From positions 569,316-633,315 of the forward strand of contig OZ246394.1 in assembly GCA_965230895.1 (NCBI GenBank): 64,000 bases of DNA, read 5' to 3'. Numbering within the stretch: the first letter of the stretch is position 1; every line of letters begins with the position of its first letter. Made by a program: the position numbers and the translations under genes. This document shows, in pieces, positions 6,137 through 64,000 of the stretch. The DNA comes from an uncultured Gammaproteobacteria bacterium (lineage in GTDB: Bacteria; Patescibacteriota; Microgenomatia; Levybacterales; UBA12049). The notes beneath the pieces were generated by a model, which saw only the letters and a list, made by a program, of their open reading frames with translations, was not told the DNA's origin and did not search any database.

Positions 6137-7771
6137 ATGGTAAAGAAAGAGAGTAAAAAACAGATCATAAAAATAGTAACGCAATATGGTGTCCATATCT
6201 GGGCAATTCTTATCATTGCAAATGCTGCGCTTGCATACGCTTTTCATTTTTCAACCCAAGCAGCTAGTAAGCCTGCGACAACCCTTGAAGAAAGTCTTGG
6301 ACCAAGAACTACCGAAGATGAATTAGATGCAACTCCATCAGCAAAAATCTCGCCTACAAAAGCACCGAAGCCAAAAGGAGGAACTATTGATCTTACTTTC
6401 AGAATTCCAGGTATTGGGAGTGATAGTGCAGTAATGGCACCAAAGCGTTTGGAGAGAAATGTAACTGTATTCCTTTATTCACCGGATAGTAATTCTCTCA
6501 ATAATTCAGTGAAGCCACTCTATACACTGAAGACGACAGCACAATTTGATACCAATACTCTGAGTCCGACATATACAAGTTATCTAGTCAAAGGATTAGA
6601 TTTTGGAACAGATGTGAAAGATGGAAGATATCAAATTGTTTTCCGCACCGATGAATCCCTCCGCACTATTATTAAGGAAAGCCCGACAAATATCGGAGGA
6701 CAATTATTTGAAATCACAAAATCAGCGAAGATCCGTCGAGTACCAACACAGACAGTGTTTATGGGAGATACGCTACCGAAGGAAGGAGATAATGTCGTAG
6801 ATATCAGTGACTATAATGCGTTTGTTAATTGTTTTGGAGAACGCAACTCATCATCATTTTGTATAGGAAATAATTATGGTGATTTCGATGACAATGGTGT
6901 TATTGATGGTGTCGATTATAATTTACTTTTACGTTCATTCCAGGAACTTTTGAAACAAGGCCAATCAATTCCAAAGGTATCTGTAGCTCCAACTTCAGGT
7001 CCACAACGGGTATCAAGATTAACAAGTATTACACCAACTGCAGTTAAAGAGAAAGTCTCACCTACGAAAGCACCTCAACAAACTGTACAAACAAAATCGA
7101 GTGGTAATGTTCTCGGCGGAATCCTCTTCTTTATTTTTCTCTTAATCGTTGGAGCAATACTCTTTATTCTCTTTAAGAAAAATGAAAAATTCCGAAATAC
7201 TATTCTGGCATTGTTACACAAATCTCCTGTCGGACCAACACCACCAGCACAACCAGCAGATCCAAATGCTCCAGTCGATCCAAATACACCTCCAGCAGAT
7301 GGCGCAGCTCAAGCAGATCCGACAACTGTTGCAGGACCCCCTACGGCAGACGCAACAGCAGCAACAGAGGAAACCCAGTCTGATCCAAATGCGGTGGCAG
7401 CCTCTACAGAAATCCCTGTGGAGTCAGTCGCAACGCCAACAGAAACAACACCTCCGCCAGCAGAACCAGCTGCTGATCCTTCAGCTATCGCTGCTTCAAC
7501 TGAAATTCCAGTTGCTGCAACACCTCCTGTAGATCCTGCGCGACCAACCCCTGCGGATGGAGAAACTGTAGAACGAGATTGCTATGTGAAGAAGAAGTTA
7601 CCGGGTGATGCATCTGGTGTATGGCTCACATTAACGGACGACAATGGGGCATTGGAAGCACATTACGCAAAACCTGATGTCGAAGAAGGATTCGCGAAAG
7701 TCAAAGGTGTTATGAAGACGGAAAATGGCAAGACCTATCTTGAAGTTTCAGAAATTATTGGTGAAGGTTAA
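6137..7771 (+). CDS. Membrane protein with dockerin-like module, internal TM helix and Pro/Ala/Thr-rich linker
   Basis: VDISDYNAFVNCFGE...GDFDDNGVIDGVDYNLLLRSF is homologous to the module in the upstream gene. TM at GGILFFIFLLIVGAILFILF. Low-complexity PA-rich stretch 7200-7560. Confidence 0.6.
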   Translation: MVKKESKKQIIKIVTQYGVHIWAILIIANAALAYAFHFSTQAASKPATTLEESLGPRTTEDELDATPSAKISPTKAPKPKGGTIDLTFRIPGIGSDSAVMAPKRLERNVTVFLYSPDSNSLNNSVKPLYTLKTTAQFDTNTLSPTYTSYLVKGLDFGTDVKDGRYQIVFRTDESLRTIIKESPTNIGGQLFEITKSAKIRRVPTQTVFMGDTLPKEGDNVVDISDYNAFVNCFGERNSSSFCIGNNYGDFDDNGVIDGVDYNLLLRSFQELLKQGQSIPKVSVAPTSGPQRVSRLTSITPTAVKEKVSPTKAPQQTVQTKSSGNVLGGILFFIFLLIVGAILFILFKKNEKFRNTILALLHKSPVGPTPPAQPADPNAPVDPNTPPADGAAQADPTTVAGPPTADATAATEETQSDPNAVAASTEIPVESVATPTETTPPPAEPAADPSAIAASTEIPVAATPPVDPARPTPADGETVERDCYVKKKLPGDASGVWLTLTDDNGALEAHYAKPDVEEGFAKVKGVMKTENGKTYLEVSEIIGEG

Positions 7772-9819
7772 GCCGCAAGCTTATCATCAGTATCACCAGC
7801 AAGTACTCTATCAACTTCTCTTTTCGTAGCAGTTAATCCGTCCTCTTTGGCGACTACAGGCATCTTATTATATATTTCTATTACGCCAGTTAGATATGCT
7901 TGCGCTGCAGTAACTTCTGCCTCACTCGTTATCAGTGGAGTTCTCCAATCTTCCCCTGCACTTGTAGGACTATTTGATCCATCAACTTTTTTGCCTAATT
8001 GATAGATGAGACCACTATTTGTATCTTTGTCTGGACCAACCATCTTGGCTGCAACTTCTCGCAATGGAGCTTTAAATTCAATATCCCATACTGGGAATAT
8101 TTGTCGGATCGCATTTCCCCATTCATGCAAACGATTTTTTAATGCCCTTTGGTCTACCTTGATTTCAGGTTTTTTATTCTTTTTATCTTCTTTTGCGATG
8201 AGTTTTGCTTTCATTGCAGCCGCAGATTTTGCTTCAACTTTTGGTTTAACGTCAACTTGAGCATCAATTTTTGCACTTGTTTGCGTAGACGCAATTGCTT
8301 CAACATTGGTCTGTGAGACAGCTATCATTTCTGTATTTGTTTGAGTCACGATCTGCATACGAGGCGCAACTTGCGCTTCTGTTACAATACCTGGCTGAAC
8401 TTTTACTTCAGGCTTCGTCATCAATTCAGGCTCTGTTTTTATCGGCTGCATTTCCACTTTTCCAGTTGTTATTTGCTCTACAATTCGGCCAGTTGCGAGT
8501 TGGTCTGGAGATGTCTGTAAGAACCTATCAACTTTTAACTGAGCCTCTTTGATATTTGGGACAATTCCAGCTCTCAAATATGCTTGCGCTACTCGCTCTC
8601 GTTGCTCTGCTTCTACTTTTTCTTTTTTTTCTTTCGTTTTCTTATCATCTTCAGGAAGAATATCTAAGTATGAAAGGTTGGCAAGTTCTCGAGTATTTAC
8701 AGAAACGGTTTCGATGTGAGCAACTGGGTTTTGCTCTATTATTCGGTCCTCAGGAACAGCTGGCTTTGATACGATTACAGGTTTCAATTCTTCGGCTACA
8801 GAACGTGTCTGTACAACCTGCGCAATTACTTTTTGCACAGGAGCTGCTGGTGCTTCAACTGTCTTGGCAGGCTGCTCAATCACAGCTTGTGTCTCAACAA
8901 CCACTTCTGGTTTGGGTGCAACTGTTGGTTCTATTGACGGACGAATGATAACCGGAGGCTCTTGAATGACAGTTTCAAAAACTTTCATTTCAGGTTTCGC
9001 AGTTGGTTCAACGATTGCCTCAGTCGGAGTTGAGATTACTTCGGTTGGGACTATTTTTTCGACAGGTACGTTTACTTTTTCTTCTAAATCTACTTTTGAC
9101 TGTGTAACTTCTTTTGGTTGTGTTTGTACTTCTGGTTGATTCACTTTTTCTAAGGAAACAACGGGTGAAACGACTTTCTCTACAGCAATATCTGATTTTT
9201 GCTCTACGTTAGCATCTGGTTGAGGTGCTTTGGATTCTGGAAGCTTTACTTGAGCATCTTTAACATGGTTATTATTTATCTCATTATTGAAAGGAGCAGA
9301 TTGCGAAACATTTTCTTTTGAAACCAGACTTTTCGGAGTGGCTTCAGCATGAGGTTTAAACTCTGGTAGTTTATCTAGTCTCGTATTTGCACTTGATTGT
9401 GGGATAACTGCAGCTACTTCAATATTTCCTTTTTTAGCTCCATTGGATGAAGTTGCTTCGGGAGCTTTTGATTTAGGAGTGTTTTCTTTTACCAAAGAGA
9501 CCGCTGGAGAAGATTCTGTAAGTGAATCCATCCGAGGTGTTCTTGCCGAAGATTCCATAAATCCTCCAGTTTTGTTACCAACTGATCGGCTTGATTGGAA
9601 TTTGCTTCCTTCGAGAGAAAGTGAAGGTTTTGATACAGAACCGAGGGAAGGTCTGCTTTCAGAACTTTTACCAAATGATGCAAGTCCTCGTGAAGAAAAT
9701 GAAGAAGTCATTCCAGATCCGGATCCTCGTTCTATACCACCACCGAAGCCGCGTCCTCCACTTAATGTGGCTGTTCCGCCGCCTCGTGATCCTCCTGATA
9801 TTCCACCTGTTTTTGCCAT
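7768..9819 (-). CDS. Large (683 aa) predominantly disordered protein with Gly/Arg-rich (RGG-like) N-terminus and a small folded C-terminal domain
   Basis: Uninterrupted ORF with a typical K/E/P/V/T-rich low-complexity body. No signal peptide or TM. N-terminus GGSRGGGTATLSGGRGFGGG. Confidence 0.55.
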   Translation of the reverse strand: MAKTGGISGGSRGGGTATLSGGRGFGGGIERGSGSGMTSSFSSRGLASFGKSSESRPSLGSVSKPSLSLEGSKFQSSRSVGNKTGGFMESSARTPRMDSLTESSPAVSLVKENTPKSKAPEATSSNGAKKGNIEVAAVIPQSSANTRLDKLPEFKPHAEATPKSLVSKENVSQSAPFNNEINNNHVKDAQVKLPESKAPQPDANVEQKSDIAVEKVVSPVVSLEKVNQPEVQTQPKEVTQSKVDLEEKVNVPVEKIVPTEVISTPTEAIVEPTAKPEMKVFETVIQEPPVIIRPSIEPTVAPKPEVVVETQAVIEQPAKTVEAPAAPVQKVIAQVVQTRSVAEELKPVIVSKPAVPEDRIIEQNPVAHIETVSVNTRELANLSYLDILPEDDKKTKEKKEKVEAEQRERVAQAYLRAGIVPNIKEAQLKVDRFLQTSPDQLATGRIVEQITTGKVEMQPIKTEPELMTKPEVKVQPGIVTEAQVAPRMQIVTQTNTEMIAVSQTNVEAIASTQTSAKIDAQVDVKPKVEAKSAAAMKAKLIAKEDKKNKKPEIKVDQRALKNRLHEWGNAIRQIFPVWDIEFKAPLREVAAKMVGPDKDTNSGLIYQLGKKVDGSNSPTSAGEDWRTPLITSEAEVTAAQAYLTGVIEIYNKMPVVAKEDGLTATKREVDRVLAGDTDDKLAA

Positions 9820-30496: not shown

Positions 30497-31531
30497 ATGA
30501 AAAAGTTAATCTTCTTAATTAGTTTCCTTTTACTTGCCCTCTTCACAACTTTCAATACCACTCCAACATATGCTCAAGTAGTCCCAACCAATTGTGATCA
30601 ACAAATGAATATGGATGGGATGAATATGCCACAACCGTCTTGTCCTCCAGCACCAACTCCAACAGTTGCGATAAATCCTGATGCTGCAAATACACCAGTT
30701 GTCCGCAAAAATATCTATAGTATGACACCAGATGAGTTAAATAGATTTATCAATGCGTTAAATACAGTTCGAGCAAATGGTTCGTATAATCGATTTATGG
30801 ATGAGCATATGCAAGCGATGATGATGAGAACTCCCGCAGATGACACTTCTACATTAAGAAATGCCGCACATCGAGGACCAATATTTTTGCCTTGGCATAG
30901 AGCATTTGTATGGGAATTCGAACAACTATTAAGAACTGTTGATCCAACTGTATCCATCCCATACTGGGCTTTCGAAAATGAAACTCCAGGAACTATACCT
31001 ATGGTATTCTCTGCAAACTATTTTGGTGGCGATGGAAACATTGCGCAGGGTGATAGAGTTACTGATGGACCTTTCGCTTCATGGGGAATTACGAGGAGAA
31101 TAGGCCGAGACGCACAAGGTCAACCAACACTTCCAACCGCGGGAGATATTGCAACAGTATTACAGATCAATGATTATGATACCCCACCATACAATGAATC
31201 TTCACAAGGTTTTAGAAACGCACTAGAGGGATGGATTGGGACAAATGCTCCATGGGGAGTTCATAATAGAGTTCACGGATATATCGGTGGAGATATGCTC
31301 CCTGATGGCATGAGTGGTAATGCTGTTAACGATCCTATCTTTTGGGTTGTTCATACAAACATTGATCGAATCTGGTGGCAGTGGCAACAGACTCATGGAA
31401 TAACAAATTACCAACCTGTTGTCGGTGGACCTGAAGGACATAATCTTAATGATGTGATGTTTATCCTCCCAAGTCAGGGAACAGCGTCAAATACTTTAGA
31501 TATAAATCAGATGAACTACACGTATAACTAA
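30497..31531 (+). CDS. Secreted tyrosinase / type-3 copper polyphenol oxidase
   Basis: Sec signal MKKLIFLISFLLLALFTTFNTTPTYA. CuA motif HRGPIFLPWHRAF. CuB motifs HNRVHGYIGGDM and DPIFWVVHTNIDRIWWQWQ. Confidence 0.85.
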   Translation: MKKLIFLISFLLLALFTTFNTTPTYAQVVPTNCDQQMNMDGMNMPQPSCPPAPTPTVAINPDAANTPVVRKNIYSMTPDELNRFINALNTVRANGSYNRFMDEHMQAMMMRTPADDTSTLRNAAHRGPIFLPWHRAFVWEFEQLLRTVDPTVSIPYWAFENETPGTIPMVFSANYFGGDGNIAQGDRVTDGPFASWGITRRIGRDAQGQPTLPTAGDIATVLQINDYDTPPYNESSQGFRNALEGWIGTNAPWGVHNRVHGYIGGDMLPDGMSGNAVNDPIFWVVHTNIDRIWWQWQQTHGITNYQPVVGGPEGHNLNDVMFILPSQGTASNTLDINQMNYTYN

Positions 31532-52954: not shown

Positions 52955-53995
52955 ATGCTTGATCTCAACAACAAAGAGCACATCCAGGAAATCGATAAGT
53001 TAGATGCCCTCGGCACCACTGAAAATCTTCTTAAGCAATGCGAAGCCGCATGGAATGAATCAACTGCTCTCTCTGTGCCTAAGATAGAAAATGTAACAAA
53101 TATTGTCTTTTGCGGCATGGGCGCTTCCATGTATGGTGGACTTGTCTTAAAATCATTACTCGGTCGAAATGTACCATATCCAGTTGAAATCGTTAGTGAC
53201 TACTATTTGCCTGATTATGTTGGAAAGAATACACTTGTCGTATTAACAAGTTACTCAGGAACAACTGAAGAAGTGCTTTCTTGTGCTGAGGACGCAAAGT
53301 CGAAAGAAGCACAAATGATTGTGGTAACAAAAGGAGGAACGCTTGCTGAATTTGCTCGAGATAACAATGTTCCTGCGTATATATTTGATCCCAAGCTTAA
53401 CCCAAATAATGTTCCTCGGTTGGGCACTGGCTATACAATTCTTGGGATGATTGGTCTGTTAAATAAAACCGGCGTTATAGATATTGAGGAGAAAGAGATC
53501 TCAGATGCACTTGTCCGTATGTATGATAAATTTGATGAGATCAAGCAGCAAGCTTTTGAGGACCACAAGATATTTATCAATAAAATCCCCATTATAGTTG
53601 CTGCAGAACAGCTTACGGGAAATGCTTTAATATTGCGAAATCAACTCAATGAAACCAGCAAGGCATTCTCTGCTTTTTATCTCCTCCCTGATCTAAATCA
53701 CCATCTTATGGAAGGATTGCAATTCCCTGCTGAAGCTCCCCTCCATTTCCTTGCTCTTAGTTCTCCAAATTATTCGGACAAGATTAAAAAGCGCCTAACA
53801 CTAACCGAAGAAGTTATTATACAAAATAAATATCCCGCTCATGAGTTTACGACTAGTGGTCAAACAAGTTATGATGATGTATTAGAGGTGCTATTTTATG
53901 GAAGCTTCCTAACTGTATATCTCGGCTTGGCTTATGAACAGAATCCTGGGACTAATCCTTGGGTAGATTGGTTTAAGAAGGAATTAAATGCTTAA
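52955..53995 (+). CDS. Bifunctional phosphoglucose/phosphomannose isomerase (SIS domain, archaeal type)
   Basis: SIS loop FCGMGASMYGGLVLKS and a second SIS region; 346 aa. Confidence 0.8.
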   Translation: MLDLNNKEHIQEIDKLDALGTTENLLKQCEAAWNESTALSVPKIENVTNIVFCGMGASMYGGLVLKSLLGRNVPYPVEIVSDYYLPDYVGKNTLVVLTSYSGTTEEVLSCAEDAKSKEAQMIVVTKGGTLAEFARDNNVPAYIFDPKLNPNNVPRLGTGYTILGMIGLLNKTGVIDIEEKEISDALVRMYDKFDEIKQQAFEDHKIFINKIPIIVAAEQLTGNALILRNQLNETSKAFSAFYLLPDLNHHLMEGLQFPAEAPLHFLALSSPNYSDKIKKRLTLTEEVIIQNKYPAHEFTTSGQTSYDDVLEVLFYGSFLTVYLGLAYEQNPGTNPWVDWFKKELNA

Positions 53996-54366
53996 GCAAC
54001 AATTGACTTCACTTTATCGACAAGCTGTGCAGGCGTAAAAGAACTCTTCAACATATAGCCATCAGTAAATCCCAAAACATGATCAATGTCTTTTGTCTCA
54101 TCACTATTCGTTAGAAAAAGAATATGCTTAGCAGGCTTCTTCAAGAATGTTTTAACCTGATCCATAATCTGGACACCGGTCATAATGGGTAGAAGTACGT
54201 CTAAAAGAATTAAATCCCATCCTCCAATTTTGATTTTATCCAATGCTTCTTTCCCATCAGCTGCTGTAGTTACATCATATCCAGCACTTGAAAGCGTTTC
54301 GTTATAAATATCACGAAGAAACATATCATCTTCTACTAGGAGTATTTTTATTTTGTTTTCCATCAC
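53992..54366 (-). CDS. Stand-alone response-regulator receiver domain (CheY-like)
   Basis: KILLVEDD (acidic pocket), phospho-acceptor D in LILLDVLLP, conserved T and K later; 124 aa; no output domain. Confidence 0.8.
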   Translation of the reverse strand: MMENKIKILLVEDDMFLRDIYNETLSSAGYDVTTAADGKEALDKIKIGGWDLILLDVLLPIMTGVQIMDQVKTFLKKPAKHILFLTNSDETKDIDHVLGFTDGYMLKSSFTPAQLVDKVKSIVA

Positions 54367-54442: not shown

Positions 54443-54925
54443 TTATCGAGTAACTTGGATTGGTGGAGTATATGCACTTGGTGCTGAAACTGTTATTCTA
54501 TTATTTGTATCTCTTGTAATTGTGTAACCTGTGTTCCATGTTCCTGCGCATTCACCAGCTTCAACTCCTGCCTGATCATTAAGTGTTGGATCCATTGGAA
54601 GTGCTGGCATATAATTTGGTACTAACTGAGCACAAAGAGCACCTAAATCGGCCCCACTTTGCAATGGGGTTGGGTCATTTACATCCAAAGCCTGAACAAG
54701 CGGCGGTAATTGCCCAGTATTTGATGCTGTATATTGTCCGATTGCATTAAGAATCTGAGTAACATCACTTCGACGCTTTGTATCATTTGCTTGGCCAAAT
54801 TGTCGTGCAGGGTTAATAGCGATAAGTGTGATTGCTAAAAGGATAGCGAGGATACCGATTACAACGAGTAATTCGATGAGTGTGAAACCTTTTTGGTCTT
54901 TGTTAAATATTTGTCGGACAGTCAT
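54443..54925 (-). CDS. Type IV major pilin, paralog 1
   Basis: Class III leader and cleavage site NKDQKG|FTLIELLVVIGILAIL with Glu5; about 160 aa; C-terminal Cys pair. Confidence 0.85.
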   Translation of the reverse strand: MTVRQIFNKDQKGFTLIELLVVIGILAILLAITLIAINPARQFGQANDTKRRSDVTQILNAIGQYTASNTGQLPPLVQALDVNDPTPLQSGADLGALCAQLVPNYMPALPMDPTLNDQAGVEAGECAGTWNTGYTITRDTNNRITVSAPSAYTPPIQVTR

Positions 54926-56083: not shown

Positions 56084-56560
56084 TTAGCGAGTTACTTGGA
56101 TTGGAGGAGTGTATGCACTTGGCGCTGATACTGTTATTCTATTATTTGCATCTTTTGCAACTGTATATCCAGTGTCCCATGTGCCCGCGCAGTCACCAGC
56201 TTCAACTCCAGCTTGATCGTTAAGAGTTGGATCCATTGGAAGTGCTGGCATATAATTTGGAACTAATTGTCCACAGAGGGATGGGAAATTTGTACTATTG
56301 AGTGCGGCTGAACCACTTGCAAGAGCTTGAACATTTGGAGGCAATTGGCCTGTATTAGATGCTGTGTATTGTCCGATTGCGTTAAGAATCTGTGTTACAT
56401 CACTTCGACGCTTTGTATCGTTTGCTTGTCCGAATTGTCGTGCTGGATTAATTGCGATAAGAGTGATAGCTAAAAGAATAGCGAGGATACCAATTACAAC
56501 GAGTAATTCTATGAGTGTGAAACCTTTTTGATTTTTATTAAATACTTCTCGGACAGTCAT
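56084..56560 (-). CDS. Type IV major pilin, paralog 2
   Basis: MTVREVFNKNQKG|FTLIELLVVIGIL. N- and C-terminal thirds are near-identical to paralog 1. The ORF-track start at 56614 reads through the conserved untranslated leader. Confidence 0.85.
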   Translation of the reverse strand: MTVREVFNKNQKGFTLIELLVVIGILAILLAITLIAINPARQFGQANDTKRRSDVTQILNAIGQYTASNTGQLPPNVQALASGSAALNSTNFPSLCGQLVPNYMPALPMDPTLNDQAGVEAGDCAGTWDTGYTVAKDANNRITVSAPSAYTPPIQVTR

Positions 56561-56660
56561 ATTGTTTTTGATCAAGTTATCTTGATCTGTATCCATTATT
56601 GTCATAATGCTCAACTGTTGTCAATAGAGCAAAAATTGAAAAAAAATCGAAAATTCAAGG

Positions 56661-57800
56661 CTATTTACCTAGGATAATCGTAATATCATTATCGCCTTCT
56701 TGTCTTTCTTCTACAGTGATATTTGGTCTTATTTTTTCAACTTCCTCAAGAATTGCGGTGCGGGTAGATTGAGTTACAGTCCCAGCAAAAAAAATAACTG
56801 ATTCTGAATTTCTAGTACTACTCCTTGTTTGCGTAGTTATGTCTTTGAATTTATATGTTTCAAGAGCGGTCCGTAAAGGCGCAGAACTAGAAGCAGAAGA
56901 ACTGACAATTTGAACGGTAAGATTTTCAAACTGAACTGGTTCAACCGGTGGAACTGTCGGCGGTACAGTTGCTACAGGGGCAGTCTGAGGCATAACAGTT
57001 GGTTGAACCGTAGCTTGGGGCGCTGGTGGTTGCATGCTTTGCATGTAAACGATAACCAGAACAACCAGTAAAATTACTAATATTCCAATCATTCCTATTA
57101 ATCGTTTCTTATTTGTCTTTGGTGGTTCTTTCCCTTGCGCTAATTCTTCCTGAACTTCGTCAACAGATTCTTCCTCTTCTTTTTTTGCCGGAGTAAATGC
57201 AGCTTGGGTCTTAATATCATATTGCTTCAAACTTGGAGTTTTCTGAATTGTCGTATTGATGAGATTCATGTCCATCGGTTTTGCACTCAATTCCCCACCC
57301 AATACCATTCCCGGAAAAACAGAGGCAATAGTAAAGCCAAGCTTTTCAAATGCTCGTTCAATGGTTGCATAGAGATCCTGATTGACTGCACAAACACGTA
57401 TACCATTTTTTAGTGGGAATGTTTTGCTCACCACATTTTCATAAGGAACATGTTCGATAAACATATCAATCTGAGGTTTTAAATCAGCAATTGTTGTTTT
57501 AGGTGTGGCAGTTGGTACAGGCTGTCCAGATTTTACTGGCTGCTGAGCTGATTGCGGAGGAATGATAAAGTCTTTCACGAAATAAGCATTATCTGCGAGT
57601 ACGATAATGAAGTTACTTGGAGGGATTTTGTTATTTGTTACTAAAATCTTTATTTGCTCTTCAAGCTTGTCATCATTTAATACATCCAAGTCCCGCACAA
57701 TATCTGGAGGAAATCGATATTCCACAAGTGATTTTAAATAAGGTGAATATAATTGAAATTTATCTTTTTGGAGATAGATTACTCCTGTTCTTACTGCCAT
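56661..57800 (-). CDS. Bitopic pilus-assembly-like protein (cytoplasmic N-domain, TM, Pro/Thr/Val-rich periplasmic region); PilM/PilN/PilO-like role is inferred
   Basis: TM helix LIGMIGILVILLVVLVIVYM near residue 230; position inside the pilin operon. Confidence 0.3.
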   Translation of the reverse strand: MAVRTGVIYLQKDKFQLYSPYLKSLVEYRFPPDIVRDLDVLNDDKLEEQIKILVTNNKIPPSNFIIVLADNAYFVKDFIIPPQSAQQPVKSGQPVPTATPKTTIADLKPQIDMFIEHVPYENVVSKTFPLKNGIRVCAVNQDLYATIERAFEKLGFTIASVFPGMVLGGELSAKPMDMNLINTTIQKTPSLKQYDIKTQAAFTPAKKEEEESVDEVQEELAQGKEPPKTNKKRLIGMIGILVILLVVLVIVYMQSMQPPAPQATVQPTVMPQTAPVATVPPTVPPVEPVQFENLTVQIVSSSASSSAPLRTALETYKFKDITTQTRSSTRNSESVIFFAGTVTQSTRTAILEEVEKIRPNITVEERQEGDNDITIILGK

Positions 57801-57801
57801 A

Positions 57802-58224
57802 TTAGAAAGCCTCTTTCTCTGACGTAACCGTCAGTTGATTATTTATATACGTTGCTCGGACCTCAACAGTTCTTTTGAAATTACCGACTGTTCCAGTTGA
57901 TGTAATAATATACGGACTCCCCGATGTGCCACTCCCTCCTACGGTTATAACTGCCTGACCTTGACCGATTGTCAAAGTTTCACCCGTATACGTTGTGGGT
58001 GTACGAAGTAGTCGCAATAATCCGTTCTCTGCCCCACTCTGCGCAACTTGATACGCAACTTCTCCCTGTTGTTGTCTTGTTCCACTATTTGAATTTATCA
58101 AGATCATAACAATTGCCGCAGACGTAATCGTTAGTCCAATAATCATAAAGAACAATAGCGTTATAAGCGCTTGCCCTCGTTGATATGAGAGCGATAATTT
58201 CTTAATTACTTTACCACTTCTCAT
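57802..58224 (-). CDS. Minor pilin / pseudopilin-like protein (non-canonical +1/+5 residues)
   Basis: QRG|QALITLLFFMIIGLTI prepilin-like N-terminus lacking Glu5; 140 aa. Confidence 0.5.
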   Translation of the reverse strand: MRSGKVIKKLSLSYQRGQALITLLFFMIIGLTITSAAIVMILINSNSGTRQQQGEVAYQVAQSGAENGLLRLLRTPTTYTGETLTIGQGQAVITVGGSGTSGSPYIITSTGTVGNFKRTVEVRATYINNQLTVTSEKEAF

Positions 58225-58775
58225 TGTCTTGCTAAAGTTGTCTGGAACGACCTTGATTCTGCACCCGACGGCTGCTGAATCCTACTCACCACAGTGAAAT
58301 TCACCCGAATTGTATCATTACTATCTCCTGCTCCAATCCGTTGGAAAGATAAACCTGTAAGGTATGAGTTAGCTCCGTTTAATTTATTTACTTCTCCGGT
58401 TGATCCATTTGTGAGGAGAAGATTTCCCCCACTATCAAGGCTATAGGTATAGTTTATAGAATTTACCCGTATTTGCAAAGTAGACGAAGTCACTCCTGGA
58501 GATGCTGGAGTAGTTATACGATCACCTGATGGAGAAGCACTTATGGATTTCATATCATAAAACAACTTGCCCATGATATATCTTCCATCCTGATCAACAA
58601 CGGATGTTGATTCTGATTCCAACTGAACTTCAACAATCTGTCCAAACATCGTACTCATAATACCAACGAGTATTGAAAGAATTCCTACATACAAAACTAA
58701 TTCGATAAGTGTAAATCCTTTTTGCCTTTTTTGAGAGGATACCTTGGCAGCAAAAAACTTCTGAAAAAATTTCAT
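58221..58775 (-). CDS. Minor pilin / pseudopilin
   Basis: KRQKG|FTLIELVLYVGILSILVG with Glu5; 184 aa. Confidence 0.7.
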   Translation of the reverse strand: MKFFQKFFAAKVSSQKRQKGFTLIELVLYVGILSILVGIMSTMFGQIVEVQLESESTSVVDQDGRYIMGKLFYDMKSISASPSGDRITTPASPGVTSSTLQIRVNSINYTYSLDSGGNLLLTNGSTGEVNKLNGANSYLTGLSFQRIGAGDSNDTIRVNFTVVSRIQQPSGAESRSFQTTLARQ

Positions 58776-58829: not shown

Positions 58830-61073
58830 TTACGAACCACCATTGGATCCACCTGAACCGGACCCGCCGTTTTGATCTCCTTGAAGTTGATTAATCAAGC
58901 TTGTAATATCAGTGTACAATAAATTATATCCTTCAACTGTTATACTCTTCCCTTTTTGTTTATTGAGTTCCACAAGCATAGCTTTCAAAGTTATAATTGC
59001 GAGCTTATTTCCCAATGGTTGTCTGTTGATTAATGTAGCTCTTTCTGCAACTTCAGCTTGCACTTTGAGTGCTGTATAAAATATAACGTTTTTAATTTGC
59101 TTCTGCTGGTAGAGTTTCTTGATGTCATCTTTTAGAATATTAAAGGTAATTTCACGGATAGGTTCTGTTTTAATATTATTTATATTTTCTTTATCATATG
59201 AAAGTTTATATACAGCCTCTGTTTCAGGAGTTAGATTACCCGTATAGGAAGCGGTTTTCATTTCCCCTTCCTCAGTAAATATATACTCATCCAATTGATA
59301 ATCTGGATCGGTTGCGGAGTAAAGTTCTACTCTATAATTGCTTGATTCTGGCTTTGCAAAATAGAATACCTTTACAGCTGATGTATTTGTATTAAATGGT
59401 TCTTCTACAAGTTGTGCAGGACTGTACTCCAAATAACTTTCCCCATACGTAGCTCCATTCTCATCACGAACAGTTATATAAACATCTTTATCAGCGACAT
59501 AAACCATGTAAGATAGATCAGTATGTGAAGGAATATATCTTCTAACCGATACTGCTTGGTTATTATATGAGGCAAGGGTTGTTCTATTAAATAGCGGATC
59601 ATTTATTTCAAAAGTATTGCCAGTTTTACCTTTCGCCACAACGAAATGCATACCAGGAGCATTTACTTGTAAAATATTAGGAATACCTTGATTTAAATCA
59701 TTTGTTAAAGTCGTTGTATTGAAGTACATATCAGGATTATACTCGAGAGCATCATATTGAAAGTTTGGGTTCTGCGACTTTGCTTTTTTAGCTAGATTCC
59801 CCACAGCGGACCATATAACTCCTAAATTACGATTATAGCCCTTATTTTCTTTCAACCATTTGTTTACGGTTCCTGGATTAACATCACTTCCGTCTGGCAT
59901 TTTGTTAATCCCATGATATCTTAAAATCATTGCAATTGAACTTGTAGCGCATCCACACTGCGTCATAGTCCTTCCACAGACAAACTGCCCAGCATTAGCG
60001 TGATCAAATTCTTCTGCCTCCCATGCAGGATTATTGTCATTATATGGAGCAACTCCTTGCTTAAATAAAGGTACATTTAAACTTGCTCCACCTATTGGAG
60101 GGGTTGGGATCATAGAAGGGAGAGGATTTGTAATTGTTTTTGGGTCAAAAGTACTAATTTTATCAAATTGTGCAAACCAAATATTACCGTCTGGGCCAGA
60201 AGTTATGTCATACACTGCACCTGAAGTATCGTATTCAATTACGTCTCCATTTTGTTGAAATTTTCCAATTATTTTTGTATTAGATCGTGTATACCATAGA
60301 GCATCATCTGATCCTAAAGTGAGTTGATCGACGTTTGGTTTAAATATTGGGTATTCAGTTATATCTCCGTGGTAAGTTATATTAGCGATTTTATTTCCAC
60401 CGTATTCTGTAAACCAAATATTATTGTTTGGGCCAAGAGCTATTCCTGTTGGGGAGCTTGAAAGAGTAGGTATTGTAAATTCAGTAATAACCCCTGTTGG
60501 AGTTATTCTTCCTATCTGATTGTCATTTGACTCAGTGAACCAAATATTGCCATCAGAACCACTAACAAGACGGACCAGTCCGATAAATGATGACGCTGGC
60601 AACTCAAAGTACATAACTGAACCACTACTGGATATTCTACCAATCTTATTTGTATTCCCAGAAGAAAACCACATATTATTATCTGGACCTAAAATAATAT
60701 CATCAGGAGCAAAATTATTATCAAGTTGATATTCAGTTATTGAACCATTTATTGTAGACCTTGCTACTTTATGAGAATTAAACTCAGTAAACCAGACATT
60801 ACCATTATTATCGCTAACAATCGAATTCGGCCTACTATATGGAGATGGTATTGTGTACTCTGTCACTATACCGGATATAGTAACTTTTCCTATCTTATTT
60901 GTTTCTATTGCAGTATACCAAATATTTCCGTCAGGACCTGATGTAATACTGGACACATTACTTCCATAAGGTAGTTGATAATCCTTGATACTAGAAGCCT
61001 CTGCAGTAGAACTAGCAAATAAAAAAAGTATAAACAAAGAAGTCACTAGACTAAAACGAAAAAAATTAATCAT
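58830..61073 (-). CDS. Secreted multidomain protein: 7-bladed Vgb-lyase-like beta-propeller, papain-like peptidase_C39-like domain and C-terminal beta/helical region
   Basis: Sec signal. Seven repeats of the form GPDGNIWFTE...NKIGRIT. Then QFVCGRTMTQCGCATSSIAM (Cys), GMHFVVAKG (His) and INDP (Asp/Asn). Gly/Ser tail. Confidence 0.6.
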   Translation of the reverse strand: MINFFRFSLVTSLFILFLFASSTAEASSIKDYQLPYGSNVSSITSGPDGNIWYTAIETNKIGKVTISGIVTEYTIPSPYSRPNSIVSDNNGNVWFTEFNSHKVARSTINGSITEYQLDNNFAPDDIILGPDNNMWFSSGNTNKIGRISSSGSVMYFELPASSFIGLVRLVSGSDGNIWFTESNDNQIGRITPTGVITEFTIPTLSSSPTGIALGPNNNIWFTEYGGNKIANITYHGDITEYPIFKPNVDQLTLGSDDALWYTRSNTKIIGKFQQNGDVIEYDTSGAVYDITSGPDGNIWFAQFDKISTFDPKTITNPLPSMIPTPPIGGASLNVPLFKQGVAPYNDNNPAWEAEEFDHANAGQFVCGRTMTQCGCATSSIAMILRYHGINKMPDGSDVNPGTVNKWLKENKGYNRNLGVIWSAVGNLAKKAKSQNPNFQYDALEYNPDMYFNTTTLTNDLNQGIPNILQVNAPGMHFVVAKGKTGNTFEINDPLFNRTTLASYNNQAVSVRRYIPSHTDLSYMVYVADKDVYITVRDENGATYGESYLEYSPAQLVEEPFNTNTSAVKVFYFAKPESSNYRVELYSATDPDYQLDEYIFTEEGEMKTASYTGNLTPETEAVYKLSYDKENINNIKTEPIREITFNILKDDIKKLYQQKQIKNVIFYTALKVQAEVAERATLINRQPLGNKLAIITLKAMLVELNKQKGKSITVEGYNLLYTDITSLINQLQGDQNGGSGSGGSNGGS

Positions 61074-61119: not shown

Positions 61120-63624
61120 CTATTGTGAGTAATTCCATTTAATATCATTTAGAACCGGAGTAACTCTTTGATCAGTTAAGGATTCCAATGTAACCTTATA
61201 TCTAAAGCATCTTTCTGGATTAATATACTCATTATTTACATAACTTCCAAAAGGTATTTTATCTTCGATAACTGAGGATTCTGAAGTATAATAGGTGCTT
61301 TCACTCCCATCAGGGCCTACATATTTATAACCGGATGTTGGACAGTTTCCATTTATCTGAGCATGTACCGCTACTTGAATTTTTACGGAAGTATTAGAGG
61401 GTTGAGTAACATTCGCCAAAAGCCTGTTGAGCGTTCTAGCAATTGTACTTCCATCAGCGGTGGCTGTATCAAACACTTGTGATTCGAAAGTTCCACTTGG
61501 CATAAAAATCGCATTATCAGGACCCCCCTGAATAATTTTTAATTCATTCAATTGGTTATTTGCGACCATATAGACATAGTTGTCATAATCCGCTTCTGAT
61601 ACAGATGTTAGGTCATTAAAACCGTCAGAGAAATCCACTCCAGAACAATACGTTGGGGTTGCTTCTGTCTCAGTATTGAGGACCTGGTATTCCTGAGCAT
61701 TTCCCCCACCAGATACACCATCCTTTCCCACAAGTACTGCGCGTTGGCCATTGAGTACGGTCAGAGATCGTCGTGGGTATAATTCTGAAGCTCCAGCTGG
61801 TGCTGGAGACGCTCCATTATAAAATCCAGAAGATGGGGTACTTGATCCTGTCAAAAATGTCGGAGAGGTTTTAGATGTAGTATTAAGGATATAGAATTGC
61901 TTACTATCGCTTCCTCCATTTGAGGAGATATATGCTCTCGTGCCATCTGCATTTGCAAATACTGAATTTGATGCCTCCTCTGTCCCTGATCCAGTATTAA
62001 AATCTTTACTTCCGCTGACCCTCCATGTAGACGCTCCTCCAGAAATTCTTCCACAACTATTTCCTGTTAACGAAGTTCCACTCGTTGGAGCCGTTGTGAC
62101 ATTCACAATTTCAAATTCCGGATTTGTCACTCCACCGACAGCAACATAAACATAGGTATTGTTTCCCACTTTCACTGGATAAATGTCATTTGTAGCACGC
62201 AATTCGATATTTCCTCCATCCGAACAATCATTATGAATTGGAGAAGTTGTGTCGCTCCAGCTTGTCCCTGATTGGCCAGAATCATACTTCGCAGCAGTTC
62301 CCGTTGTTCCGGGCTTACACTCATAGCCATCCAATTCAATCCTACAGCCATACATATCCAAACCACTCGAGGTCGATTTACTATCAATATTTGCCAGATT
62401 GAAAACATACAGATATCCGCCTGATGCGACATATCCCCGATCGCCTAATACAGCTACGGACGAAGCACCATAGCCATATGGTGATTGATCATTACTGGAA
62501 CTTGCGATACCATTATATCTTCGTGTATTAAAAAAAGTTTTATATTTATACAGCTTATTAACCGGATCTTGGTATTCTCCACTTGTTGTATTATCGTTGG
62601 CATCATTACCGTCATTTACCCACACTGCAATCACTTCTTTATCAGGAAGATCCGTCCCAATAATTGCATAAGTATTGCCCCCTGAGGATTTATAATACTT
62701 TACGTCCGTGGTTGAAAAGCTATTTGTAAGCCCTGTACCAGATTGAGGCGAATACCCTGAGGCATATTCTGAAGAATTCATTGAAAACCGTCCACGCAAA
62801 GTTGTCGTAGGCGTTTCTGAATTTGCAGTAACATTTATATAAGCTAACTTTGAAGAACTGGTTGCGTATGGAGCAGTTGCAACAAACACATCATTTGGCT
62901 GTGCAGTAGTAGCACTAGCCGTGGCTGCAACAGCAACAGGTGGTCCATCAGGTAAATCAATCGTTGCTTCCCCTCCAAGGCTATTTAAAGCAAATGCTGG
63001 AGAACACCATTTGGCTTTATTATTATTAGCAAGTTTTATTTCTCCACCCGTATCACTCGTGTACTGAACATTAACACCTGTTCCTGCTTCAAATTGAGCT
63101 TTTGTCGTGTGTTCGGCACTTAGATTGGACGTTCTGGTCAGGAAAATGGTTGAGGTGATTGAAGATGCAATTGGCCTGGTCCAGGAAACTGTAATATTAG
63201 CTTTCCGTGTCGAAGGATCAAGTGTATTTCCTGCAGAGGTTGATGCAATTGCTCCTGAGGAATCTCTGTATACACTTGATAATACAACTTGTTGCGTAAA
63301 ACCGGCAGCATTTGATGCAGTTCCTGAAGCCATCGTCCATCGGTTATTTGAAATAACTGGATGATAAGAAGCTCCAATGGTTAAATTAGAAAGCGCTGTC
63401 CAATCACTATCCCGCACGTTTTTAACTGCAGTTTCGGTTTCTTTCATCAAAGCAATCCCTTGCAATCGTTGTTCTTGTTGCGGCTTGCCATCACGCGATG
63501 CGAGCAAACTTAACACCAAACCAGGCAAGATCAACGCTGCCAATCCTATGGTTAAAACTAATTCTACTAATAATTGTCCTCGCTGTAGCTTCTTCATCTT
63601 ATTGCATACTTGAAATAACTCCAT
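61120..63624 (-). CDS. Giant pilin-like protein (834 aa) with prepilin-type N-terminus and a large Ser/Thr/Gly/Asn-rich extracellular domain; candidate tip adhesin
   Basis: KKLQRG|QLLVELVLTIGLAALILPGLVL has Glu5; the rest is a beta-rich domain dominated by S/T/G/N/Y. Confidence 0.55.
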   Translation of the reverse strand: MELFQVCNKMKKLQRGQLLVELVLTIGLAALILPGLVLSLLASRDGKPQQEQRLQGIALMKETETAVKNVRDSDWTALSNLTIGASYHPVISNNRWTMASGTASNAAGFTQQVVLSSVYRDSSGAIASTSAGNTLDPSTRKANITVSWTRPIASSITSTIFLTRTSNLSAEHTTKAQFEAGTGVNVQYTSDTGGEIKLANNNKAKWCSPAFALNSLGGEATIDLPDGPPVAVAATASATTAQPNDVFVATAPYATSSSKLAYINVTANSETPTTTLRGRFSMNSSEYASGYSPQSGTGLTNSFSTTDVKYYKSSGGNTYAIIGTDLPDKEVIAVWVNDGNDANDNTTSGEYQDPVNKLYKYKTFFNTRRYNGIASSSNDQSPYGYGASSVAVLGDRGYVASGGYLYVFNLANIDSKSTSSGLDMYGCRIELDGYECKPGTTGTAAKYDSGQSGTSWSDTTSPIHNDCSDGGNIELRATNDIYPVKVGNNTYVYVAVGGVTNPEFEIVNVTTAPTSGTSLTGNSCGRISGGASTWRVSGSKDFNTGSGTEEASNSVFANADGTRAYISSNGGSDSKQFYILNTTSKTSPTFLTGSSTPSSGFYNGASPAPAGASELYPRRSLTVLNGQRAVLVGKDGVSGGGNAQEYQVLNTETEATPTYCSGVDFSDGFNDLTSVSEADYDNYVYMVANNQLNELKIIQGGPDNAIFMPSGTFESQVFDTATADGSTIARTLNRLLANVTQPSNTSVKIQVAVHAQINGNCPTSGYKYVGPDGSESTYYTSESSVIEDKIPFGSYVNNEYINPERCFRYKVTLESLTDQRVTPVLNDIKWNYSQ

Positions 63625-64000
63625 ACCTATTTAATCGTAGAACTTTCTGATCATTATTCATACTGTCATGAATCGTAATAACAGCTGACGTACTTGCATA
63701 ATTTGTAACTTCTCCACTCCCTTTTGTAAATGTTATCGATGAACTTGCGGAAGCTGTTGTTATAGTTAATGTGTTCGGATATGATACTGCGAAATTAGCT
63801 GAAGCAGTGGCTACATATGTACCTTTATATAGTATATATCGATGATTTGCCGAATCAAATTGGATACCATAATTATCAGCAGTTGTTGTACCACTTGTGT
63901 CACCAGACATAGCTTTTGCTTGTTGATCTTTCAGATCTGCCATAAATGTATTTAAGGTAGAATTAAGCTGTGATTCATTTTGGAACCTGAACAAGCTAAC
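63599..64000 (-). CDS. Pilin-like or pilus-associated protein, 3' part (the N-terminus lies beyond the window edge)
   Basis: The ORF is open to the window end and Ser/Thr-rich like its neighbour; the first Met in the track is probably not the true start. Confidence 0.35.
   Translation of the reverse strand, partial: VSLFRFQNESQLNSTLNTFMADLKDQQAKAMSGDTSGTTTADNYGIQFDSANHRYILYKGTYVATASANFAVSYPNTLTITTASASSSITFTKGSGEVTNYASTSAVITIHDSMNNDQKVLRLNRYGVISSMQ

Follow-up and report, generated by a model that had tools for sequence, protein, structure and literature searches.

What does a Candidate Phyla Radiation (CPR, or Patescibacteria) bacterium expose at the end of its type IV pili? CPR bacteria presumably lead an attached life on other microbes, with type IV pili as the best-supported attachment organelle, and the experimental data on CPR pili come from Saccharibacteria only. 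For the Microgenomatia, the question is raised by a locus at one end of a stretch of 64,000 nucleotides of contig OZ246394.1 (positions 569,316 to 633,315; assembly GCA_965230895.1), hereafter the window, whose first nucleotide is position 1. A reading of its sequence alone had singled out there an open reading frame (ORF) of 834 amino acids (aa), which we call the large pilin, as a candidate pilus tip adhesin. Our analyses indicate that it is probably a minor pilin of modular type in a Microgenomatia type IV pilus, whose bulky β-propeller and C-terminal domain would be displayed at the tip.

The ORF runs uninterrupted on the minus strand (Table 1), with the N-terminus MELFQVCNKMKKLQRG↓QLLVELVLTIGLAALILPGL (the arrow marks the predicted cleavage site), and the exact protein sequence is found in public assemblies (P0001). 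The true coding sequence probably starts at Met10, position 63597, yielding a protein of 825 aa with a basic leader of seven residues, MKKLQRG, before the Gln. We favor this start because the stop codon of the upstream gene (63599–63601) ends one base before this ATG, and because an orthologue with 87% identity begins with MKKLQRGQ and has no in-frame start further upstream. A Kyte-Doolittle scan detected a single hydrophobic segment (residues ~15–45). The rest of the protein is modeled as an all-β propeller followed by a β domain, and the overall composition is 11.9% Ser, 10.4% Thr, 9.2% Gly, 8.4% Ala, 7.6% Asn, and 5.0% Tyr, in agreement with the original prediction of an S/T/G/N/Y-rich, β-type remainder devoid of further transmembrane segments.

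The class III N-terminal context with Glu5, which characterizes type IV pilins (PF07963, TIGR02532, IPR012902) and was also part of that prediction, was confirmed by comparison. In an alignment of 39 homologues (55–87% identity), Glu21 (that is, Glu+5) is invariant and Gly16 (Gly−1) nearly so, the leader ahead of Gly−1 being unconserved (0.32); in the wider set of loci described below, 50 of the 51 readable N-termini carry Glu at +5. This motif is no chance resemblance. Throughout the window, only the large pilin ORF and three further pilin genes of its operon contain the pattern Gly-x4-Glu-hydrophobic, and an N-terminal profile of the family, searched against all window ORFs, matches only the four other pilins. 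The succession of leader, Gly, Glu5, and hydrophobic helix lies in register with the GFTLIE pilins. The N_methyl family PF07963 is recognized in six of the 39 close homologues (best E-value 8.1e-06) and in many distant relatives, and a weak match to the ComGE minor pilin is obtained for 17 of 26 family N-termini (best E-value 2.1e-05). Cleavage by the prepilin peptidase PilD would thus be predicted at G↓Q.

The genomic context tells the same story: the gene stands in the interval from pilC to the major pilin gene, together with those of three small minor pilins. The complete order is Hpt protein, response regulator, PilB (561 aa, MshEN and T2SSE domains), PilC (350 aa, T2SSF), a 161-aa pilin (pilin A), the large pilin, a 747-aa protein, a 184-aa pilin (pilin B), a 140-aa pilin (pilin C), a 379-aa protein, and the major pilin, with the genes for PilB and PilC upstream, where the contig continues beyond the window (L001). 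On that contig, the gene crossing the window end, announced originally as a second similar gene, turned out to be that of the 161-aa minor pilin with an N_methyl motif. We scanned one genome per species and obtained 59 loci, 54 of them with a full-length orthologue, from records entitled Levyi-, Woese-, Roizman-, and Shapirobacteria, Microgenomates, and Patescibacteria group. The gene order recurs in about 50 Microgenomatia species: a GFTxxE pilin immediately upstream of the large pilin in 45 of the 52 testable loci, a second pilin downstream in 47 of 50, and a pilin lacking Glu5 next after it in 43 of 50, with PilB-sized and PilC-sized upstream ORFs each present in 36 of 51. Three further homologues, placed using database gene calls, show the arrangement of the window operon, and every homologue examined comes from this type of pilus locus. 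The finding that would have refuted the original prediction, an absence of homologues from pilus loci, was thus clearly not made. The slot of the 379-aa protein retains an ORF of 220–400 aa in the related loci. Pilin C, the subunit without Glu5, is a cap-type (GspK/PilX-like) minor pilin, with Gln at +1 in 32 of the 39 pilin C N-termini with a readable motif. Within the window operon, Gln+1 is common only to pilin C and the large pilin.

AlphaFold2, run on the alignment of 39 sequences (mean predicted local distance difference test, pLDDT, 82.7; predicted template modeling score, pTM, 0.64), models a continuous helix (residues 17–73), a five-stranded sheet (86–163), ~34 strands (182–702), and a separate β domain (705–834). 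The helix and the small β head would make up a pilin-like “lollipop”, a fold assigned by topology only, and the hydrophobic N-terminal half of the helix would form the filament core. Compared with the PDB using Foldseek, the central part resembles seven-bladed propellers such as Sec12 (TM-score 0.67), DDB1-BPB (0.62), and DCAF2 (0.57); the propeller was one of the two folds, with a lectin, initially considered for the C-terminal part. The top E-values went to podovirus nozzle/gp10 proteins at TM-scores of only 0.1–0.4, with the same picture in a viral library, and we set homology to these proteins aside, reading the low scores as common propeller geometry. Eight Cys residues (207, 427, 436, 467, 524, 660, 761, and 806), six of them in the propeller, are invariant in the 39-homologue alignment. 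Together with the sum of Gly, Ala, Ser, and Thr (39.9%), they fit an extracellular protein, and they also fit a reported enrichment of disulfide machinery in CPR bacteria (PMC6744442). The C-terminal domain has no Pfam match, and a profile search of the PDB with it was empty even at E ≤ 10. This domain, which may pack with the pilin module, is kept throughout the superfamily, including members with different propellers (P0135, P0228, P0249, P0469, and P0475).

At the sequence level, the large pilin matches nothing in Pfam, NCBIfam, or the PDB (the PDB search returned noise only), and PF08309, the LVIVD repeat family, is matched neither by it nor by its 38 close homologues. Seven repeat units can nonetheless be read by eye in the family alignment. 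The relationship became visible with hhalign, which aligned residues 18–832 of the large-pilin family with the 654-aa protein P0135 (probability 100, E-value 4e-92, 38% identity). P0135 matches PF08309 (1.5e-09), and proteins of its type occupy the same operon slot as the large pilin. Because of this end-to-end alignment with an LVIVD-positive protein of identical genomic position, we regard the propeller as a divergent, loop-expanded member of the LVIVD type. An exhaustive profile search retrieved 4724 representative clusters (50% identity) at E ≤ 1e-3, 329 of them at E ≤ 1e-30. Many of these relatives have 620–700 aa and match best over the ~260 N-terminal and ~280 C-terminal profile positions. 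The six that we read have in common an N-terminal module (G-x-x-L-V-E ... W..[FIV]...GTYHP ... DPSTK ... SWT.P.) and a C-terminal domain ending in TPVL.DVTVNYSP. Between them lie canonical LVIVD repeats (PF08309, 1.5e-09 to 1.2e-75), forming two propellers in some proteins. The superfamily as a whole thus keeps its terminal modules and varies in the middle. Both modules are also found in proteins labeled as Saccharimonadales, so the superfamily would extend beyond Microgenomatia if these labels are right. Another variation concerns the close homologues, 17 of 39 of which (~990 aa; P0024, P0029, P0035, P0038, P0041, P0070, and others) carry in a propeller loop, after residue 374, a conserved domain of ~173 aa (172–221 aa individually) without Pfam match (...GIEVRLDA...CVQLSWDGGTTWT...DTWGRTW...NFRVRV...DFSLDW...). 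The window protein is devoid of this insertion.

We propose the following mode of action. After Sec insertion, prepilin peptidase would remove MKKLQRG at G↓Q, leaving the hydrophobic helix α1 with its Glu5 in the membrane. The large pilin and pilins A, B, and C would form a priming complex on the PilC/PilB platform, in which the large pilin would be positioned beside or below pilin C, the cap devoid of Glu5. Pilins without this residue are known to act as caps in the case of GspK and PilX, in type II secretion systems (T2SS) and type IVa pili (T4aP). The major pilin would polymerize below the priming complex, which would in this way reach the distal tip. The acidic, disulfide-stabilized, LVIVD-related propeller and the C-terminal β domain, an extracellular part of ~70 kDa, would be displayed at the tip because they are too bulky for the filament body. 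The same argument has been made for PilB of Streptococcus sanguinis, and bulky modular pilins have been modeled as tip-only subunits (PMC8179133). The reading of a large, tip-exposed minor pilin is well supported, its placement at the very tip being probable on these grounds of bulk. One polypeptide would thereby join roles that Proteobacteria assign to separate proteins, namely a core minor pilin (PilW/PilX) and PilY1 with its propeller. At the tip, the extracellular part would most likely bind a conserved ligand carried by a partner cell or a surface. In the saccharibacterium TM7x, efficient host binding requires PilX2, a minor pilin with a propeller and a non-canonical signal (PMC11623550). 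By analogy with this protein, adhesion to a partner cell appears the most likely function of the large pilin.

Several observations weigh against this interpretation. With E ≤ 0.1 as the limit, no pilin hidden Markov model (HMM) of Pfam or NCBIfam recognizes the large pilin itself, and when the PDB was searched with a profile of the family, pilins were reached only below threshold (E-values 0.09–0.44). A separate model of residues 1–204 (pLDDT 79.7), compared with the PDB using Foldseek, found nothing at E ≤ 1e-3 and no pilin among the top 50 matches. No prepilin peptidase gene was found within the 64-kb window. Position +1 is occupied by Gln, not by the canonical Phe or Met; thus, of the class III signal, Gly−1 and Glu+5 stand and Phe+1 does not. 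The same Gln is present in 40 of 51 orthologues, the remainder having H, S, A, N, K, or E. PilD cleavage is critically determined by Gly−1 and tolerant of the residue at +1, so Gln+1 is no strong argument against processing. Adhesion-type signatures (vWA, lectin, RGD, canonical Ca site) were also lacking, the vWA and lectin domains having been sought by Pfam scan only. Searching the sequence for the simple patterns D-x-D-x-[DN]-G, RGD, GGxGxD, and CxxC was negative, with one DxDN as the sole yield, and the von Willebrand or calcium-binding motifs that had been envisaged at the outset were not recovered by either approach. Finally, the propeller is the most conserved region of the protein (per-column conservation 0.7–0.87), unlike what is expected from a diversifying adhesin that determines host specificity. 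For this reason, its conservation would point to a ligand, or an assembly role, common to many lineages rather than to a determinant of host range. Three elements of the system vary: the 173-aa insertion, present in some homologues only, the downstream accessory slot, and, in the duplicated major pilins, the central loop.

This conservation is also what lends weight to the strongest alternative, which we consider clearly less probable than a tip adhesin but worth serious attention. The same molecule, as a fused equivalent of PilW/PilX and PilY1, would be an obligatory constituent of the priming complex of four pilins, its propeller and C-terminal domain serving to nucleate or stabilize the tip complex and to counteract retraction, with ligand binding as a secondary property. 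The large pilin is indeed one of exactly four non-major pilins in the conserved block, the family is very strongly conserved (mean column identity of 53%, with ~130 positions that do not vary across candidate phyla), and its terminal modules are superfamily-wide around a variable middle. However, a propeller of ~55 kDa is costly for reduced genomes if its role is structural only, and TM7x cells without PilX2 still make pili (PMC11623550). An assembly role is, moreover, compatible with adhesion and the two may coexist. In a bolder reading, which we find rather unlikely, the family would be a natural fusion product that joins a PilY1-like propeller to a core minor pilin, and the pilin and NYSP domains would constitute a universal CPR “carrier” for interchangeable propellers and β-sandwich inserts. 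Gln+1, present also in the cap pilin without Glu5, would then mark a distinct processing of the two tip-most subunits, leading for instance to an uncharged pyroglutamate instead of N-methyl-Phe.

The N-terminal data invite a different objection, namely that the hydrophobic segment is an uncleaved signal anchor and the protein a bitopic surface protein that stays in the membrane near the pilus machinery and never enters the fiber. We hold this to be improbable. Although the non-canonical Gln+1 and the lack of an above-threshold pilin HMM match would agree with it, as would the report by the authors of the TM7x study that SignalP calls no PilD site in the large pilins PilX1 and PilX2 (PMC11623550), the invariant Glu+5 and near-invariant Gly−1 fall exactly in register with the GFTLIE pilins. 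In addition, a conserved charged Glu is unexpected in a plain membrane anchor, and the neighboring cap pilin has an identical G↓Q context. Still less probable is a DNA receptor of a competence-type pilus, comparable to ComZ or ComP and feeding CPR cells that scavenge nucleotides. CPR pili have often been tied to DNA uptake (PMC6744442), one related locus has dprA ~6 kb downstream, and a universal ligand such as DNA would account for the high conservation; yet we set this idea aside because the exposed part is acidic (isoelectric point 4.5 for the propeller and 5.0 for the C-terminal domain, net charge of the extracellular part −19), and PDB sequence and Foldseek searches revealed no likeness to ComZ, ComP, or any DNA-binding fold. 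Least probable of all is a lyase-, hydrolase-, or lactonase-type propeller delivered by the pilus against the host envelope, since, despite the conserved acidic/polar loop motifs of the family (CSDGGNIE, GTEEAANSV, and SSNGGxDS), an adjoining accessory gene that joins a Vgb-lyase-like propeller to a C39-like peptidase, and the precedent of modular pilins with peptidase modules (PMC8179133), no enzyme family was matched by sequence in Pfam, NCBIfam, or the PDB and the fold matches are scaffold-type WD40-like propellers besides the phage nozzle proteins of low TM-score.

Table 1. Elements of the large pilin and of its operon, in window coordinates.
Feature	Position	Strand	Basis
Minor pilin A, 161 aa, GspH/ComGD-like (3′ part; exits window)	63599..64000	−	L001 gene 7937–8422, PF07963; weak ComGD match
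Large pilin, whole ORF, 834 aa	61120..63624	−	ORF translation, orthologue comparison
Leader MKKLQRG, ending in Gly(−1); predicted prepilin-peptidase site G↓QLLVE	63577..63597	−	Gly16 nearly invariant, Glu21 invariant
α1 helix, residues 17–73 (57 residues), hydrophobic N-terminal half with Glu+5	63406..63576	−	Helix in both AlphaFold models; sole hydrophobic segment
Small antiparallel β-sheet head, residues ~74–175	63100..63405	−	Strands 86–92, 95–100, 109–120, 134–148, 154–163, pLDDT ~90
Linker and ~520-residue seven-bladed β-propeller, residues ~176–704	61513..63099	−	AlphaFold (~34 strands), Foldseek, hhalign
C-terminal ~130-residue β domain, ending ...NYSQ (family consensus NYSP)	61123..61512	−	AlphaFold, family profiles
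Accessory 747-aa Sec-signal protein, Vgb_lyase-like propeller and C39-like peptidase domain	58830..61073	−	Pfam (PF24684, 9.5e-76)
Minor pilin B, 184 aa, KG↓FTLIELVLYV	58221..58775	−	PF07963, 2.3e-07
Minor pilin C, 140 aa, RG↓QALITLL, Thr replacing Glu at +5	57802..58224	−	Weak GspK match
Bitopic protein, 379 aa, placed like a PilM/N/O-type alignment component (putative)	56661..57800	−	No significant Pfam/NCBIfam family
Major pilin, GFTLIELLVVI	56084..56614	−	PF07963, 8.9e-11; GspG-like, 1.6e-09
Second major-pilin paralogue, 1.2 kb beyond the first	54443..54925	−	ORF list, Pfam, NCBIfam

Other features of the operon deserve mention. The accessory slot downstream of the large pilin is variable: empty in most related loci, it holds a 595-aa gene in L007, a 1007-aa gene in L016, and a second large pilin, of 678 aa and LVIVD type, in L066. 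The 747-aa protein that fills it in the window, a lineage-specific insertion, may be a pilus-associated secreted effector. The two major-pilin paralogues are near-identical over their ~75 N-terminal and ~70 C-terminal residues and differ essentially by one central loop, and between their genes lie a 206-aa ORF and a gene for a small membrane protein. A stand-alone response regulator (53992–54366, minus strand) adjoins the second major-pilin gene, and the genes for the Hpt protein and the other response regulator stand directly upstream of pilB (L001 4344–5110), just beyond the window. The presence of these regulators next to the second pilin gene and before pilB suggests phosphorelay control of the pilus operon.

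Elsewhere, the window codes for UvrA, UvrC, MutS, MutL, an AdoHcy hydrolase, and a CofD-like protein. It also contains, at 30497–31531 on the plus strand, a tyrosinase central domain (PF00264, 2e-37), unexpected for a reduced CPR genome, and two long ORFs without Pfam match at E ≤ 1e-5 (683 aa at 7768–9819, minus strand, and 544 aa at 6137–7771, plus strand). With 1.61 Mb, the source contig is large for the group. Many third-party annotation (TPA) metagenome-assembled genomes that possess the typical CPR pilus operon (L007, L012–L014, L016, L017, L021–L025, and others) are entitled “uncultured Gammaproteobacteria” or “Pseudomonadales”, labels that are evidently wrong.

Our literature search turned up no paper on the large-pilin family, on its conserved C-terminal domain, or on the constant position that it holds in the operon of Microgenomatia. 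Architectures combining a pilin with LVIVD repeats, as well as CPR minor pilins that bear propellers (PilX2 of TM7x), are already published. The large pilin nevertheless represents a large family, with its 4724 clusters, that lacks annotation at the family level, and a fixed component of the pilus operon in Microgenomatia. Since no other subunit of the pilus exposes a large module, it is the obvious candidate for the point of contact with partner cells and offers a concrete target for binding studies, for antibodies to be used in enrichment or imaging, and for comparative genomics. Were the speculative carrier and fusion scenario true, it would reveal a CPR-wide design of the tip complex not described before and give a handle on host recognition in uncultured Microgenomatia.

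How does the large pilin compare with known systems? The original prediction had likened it to PilY1/ComGD-like proteins, and neither affiliation could be maintained. It does not match PF05567, the PilY1 family (IPR008707), it has a class III N-terminus, and PilY1 is outside the top 50 Foldseek matches in the PDB. It is likewise unmatched by the small minor pilins of ComGD/GspH type (NF040982, TIGR01708, ~140–170 aa), the weak ComGD match belonging to the 161-aa gene next to it. GspK of T2SS, ComZ of Thermus, and CofB/TcpB of type IVb pili are, like the large pilin, minor pilins located at the tip and equipped with an extra domain. This domain is an α domain in GspK, which lacks Glu5, and a β-solenoid in ComZ, whereas CofB and TcpB are trimers with β-repeat and β-sandwich domains. 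None of them has a propeller, and no match to the large pilin was detected by NCBIfam, PDB sequence, or Foldseek searches. The LVIVD (PF08309) surface proteins of bacteria and archaea are closer in another sense: relatives in the same operon slot match PF08309 and the large pilin aligns with them end to end. It differs by long loop insertions with invariant Cys, and ordinary LVIVD proteins have no pilin N-terminus.

We take IPR013211 to be the LVIVD repeat, the propeller type of the large pilin’s relatives. Twelve IPR013211 motifs are listed by Raynaud et al. for a pilin of Ca. Falkowbacteria in their study of modular type IV pilins, typified by PilB and PilC of S. sanguinis (2021, PMC8179133). 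In these proteins, a single polypeptide likewise combines an N-terminal pilin module with a bulky grafted module, the pilus is of monoderm type, and the bulky subunit is predicted at the tip. By its AlphaFold architecture and its conserved N-terminal motif, the large pilin agrees with the definition given there (PMC8179133). It departs from the described cases in having a divergent propeller plus an additional C-terminal domain, instead of a vWA or lectin module, both unrecognized by Pfam, and also by its Gln+1 and by the location of its gene within a core block of four minor pilins.

The nearest experimental reference is the TM7x pilus, also from a CPR bacterium, in which, as here, the largest minor pilin of the locus has a non-canonical signal peptide (PilX2 and PilX1; PMC11623550). 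PilX2 ends in a heptabladed propeller and PilX1 in a β-jelly-roll; a tip adhesin has been proposed, and a PilX2 mutant binds the host less efficiently (PMC11623550). The propeller of PilX2 is described as of RCC1 type and the large pilin has no RCC1 match in Pfam, a comparison made by description. In the large-pilin family, unlike in TM7x, propeller and β domain are carried by one chain. Beyond CPR bacteria, the counterpart is PilY1/PilC with FimU, PilV, PilW, and PilX, where a propeller also sits on a tip and priming complex of four minor pilins that includes a cap pilin without Glu5. PilY1 is a non-pilin with a Sec signal and a PF05567 propeller, whereas pilin and propeller are covalently joined in the present case; the working principle, however, is likely common to the large pilin and to PilY1 with its core minor pilins.

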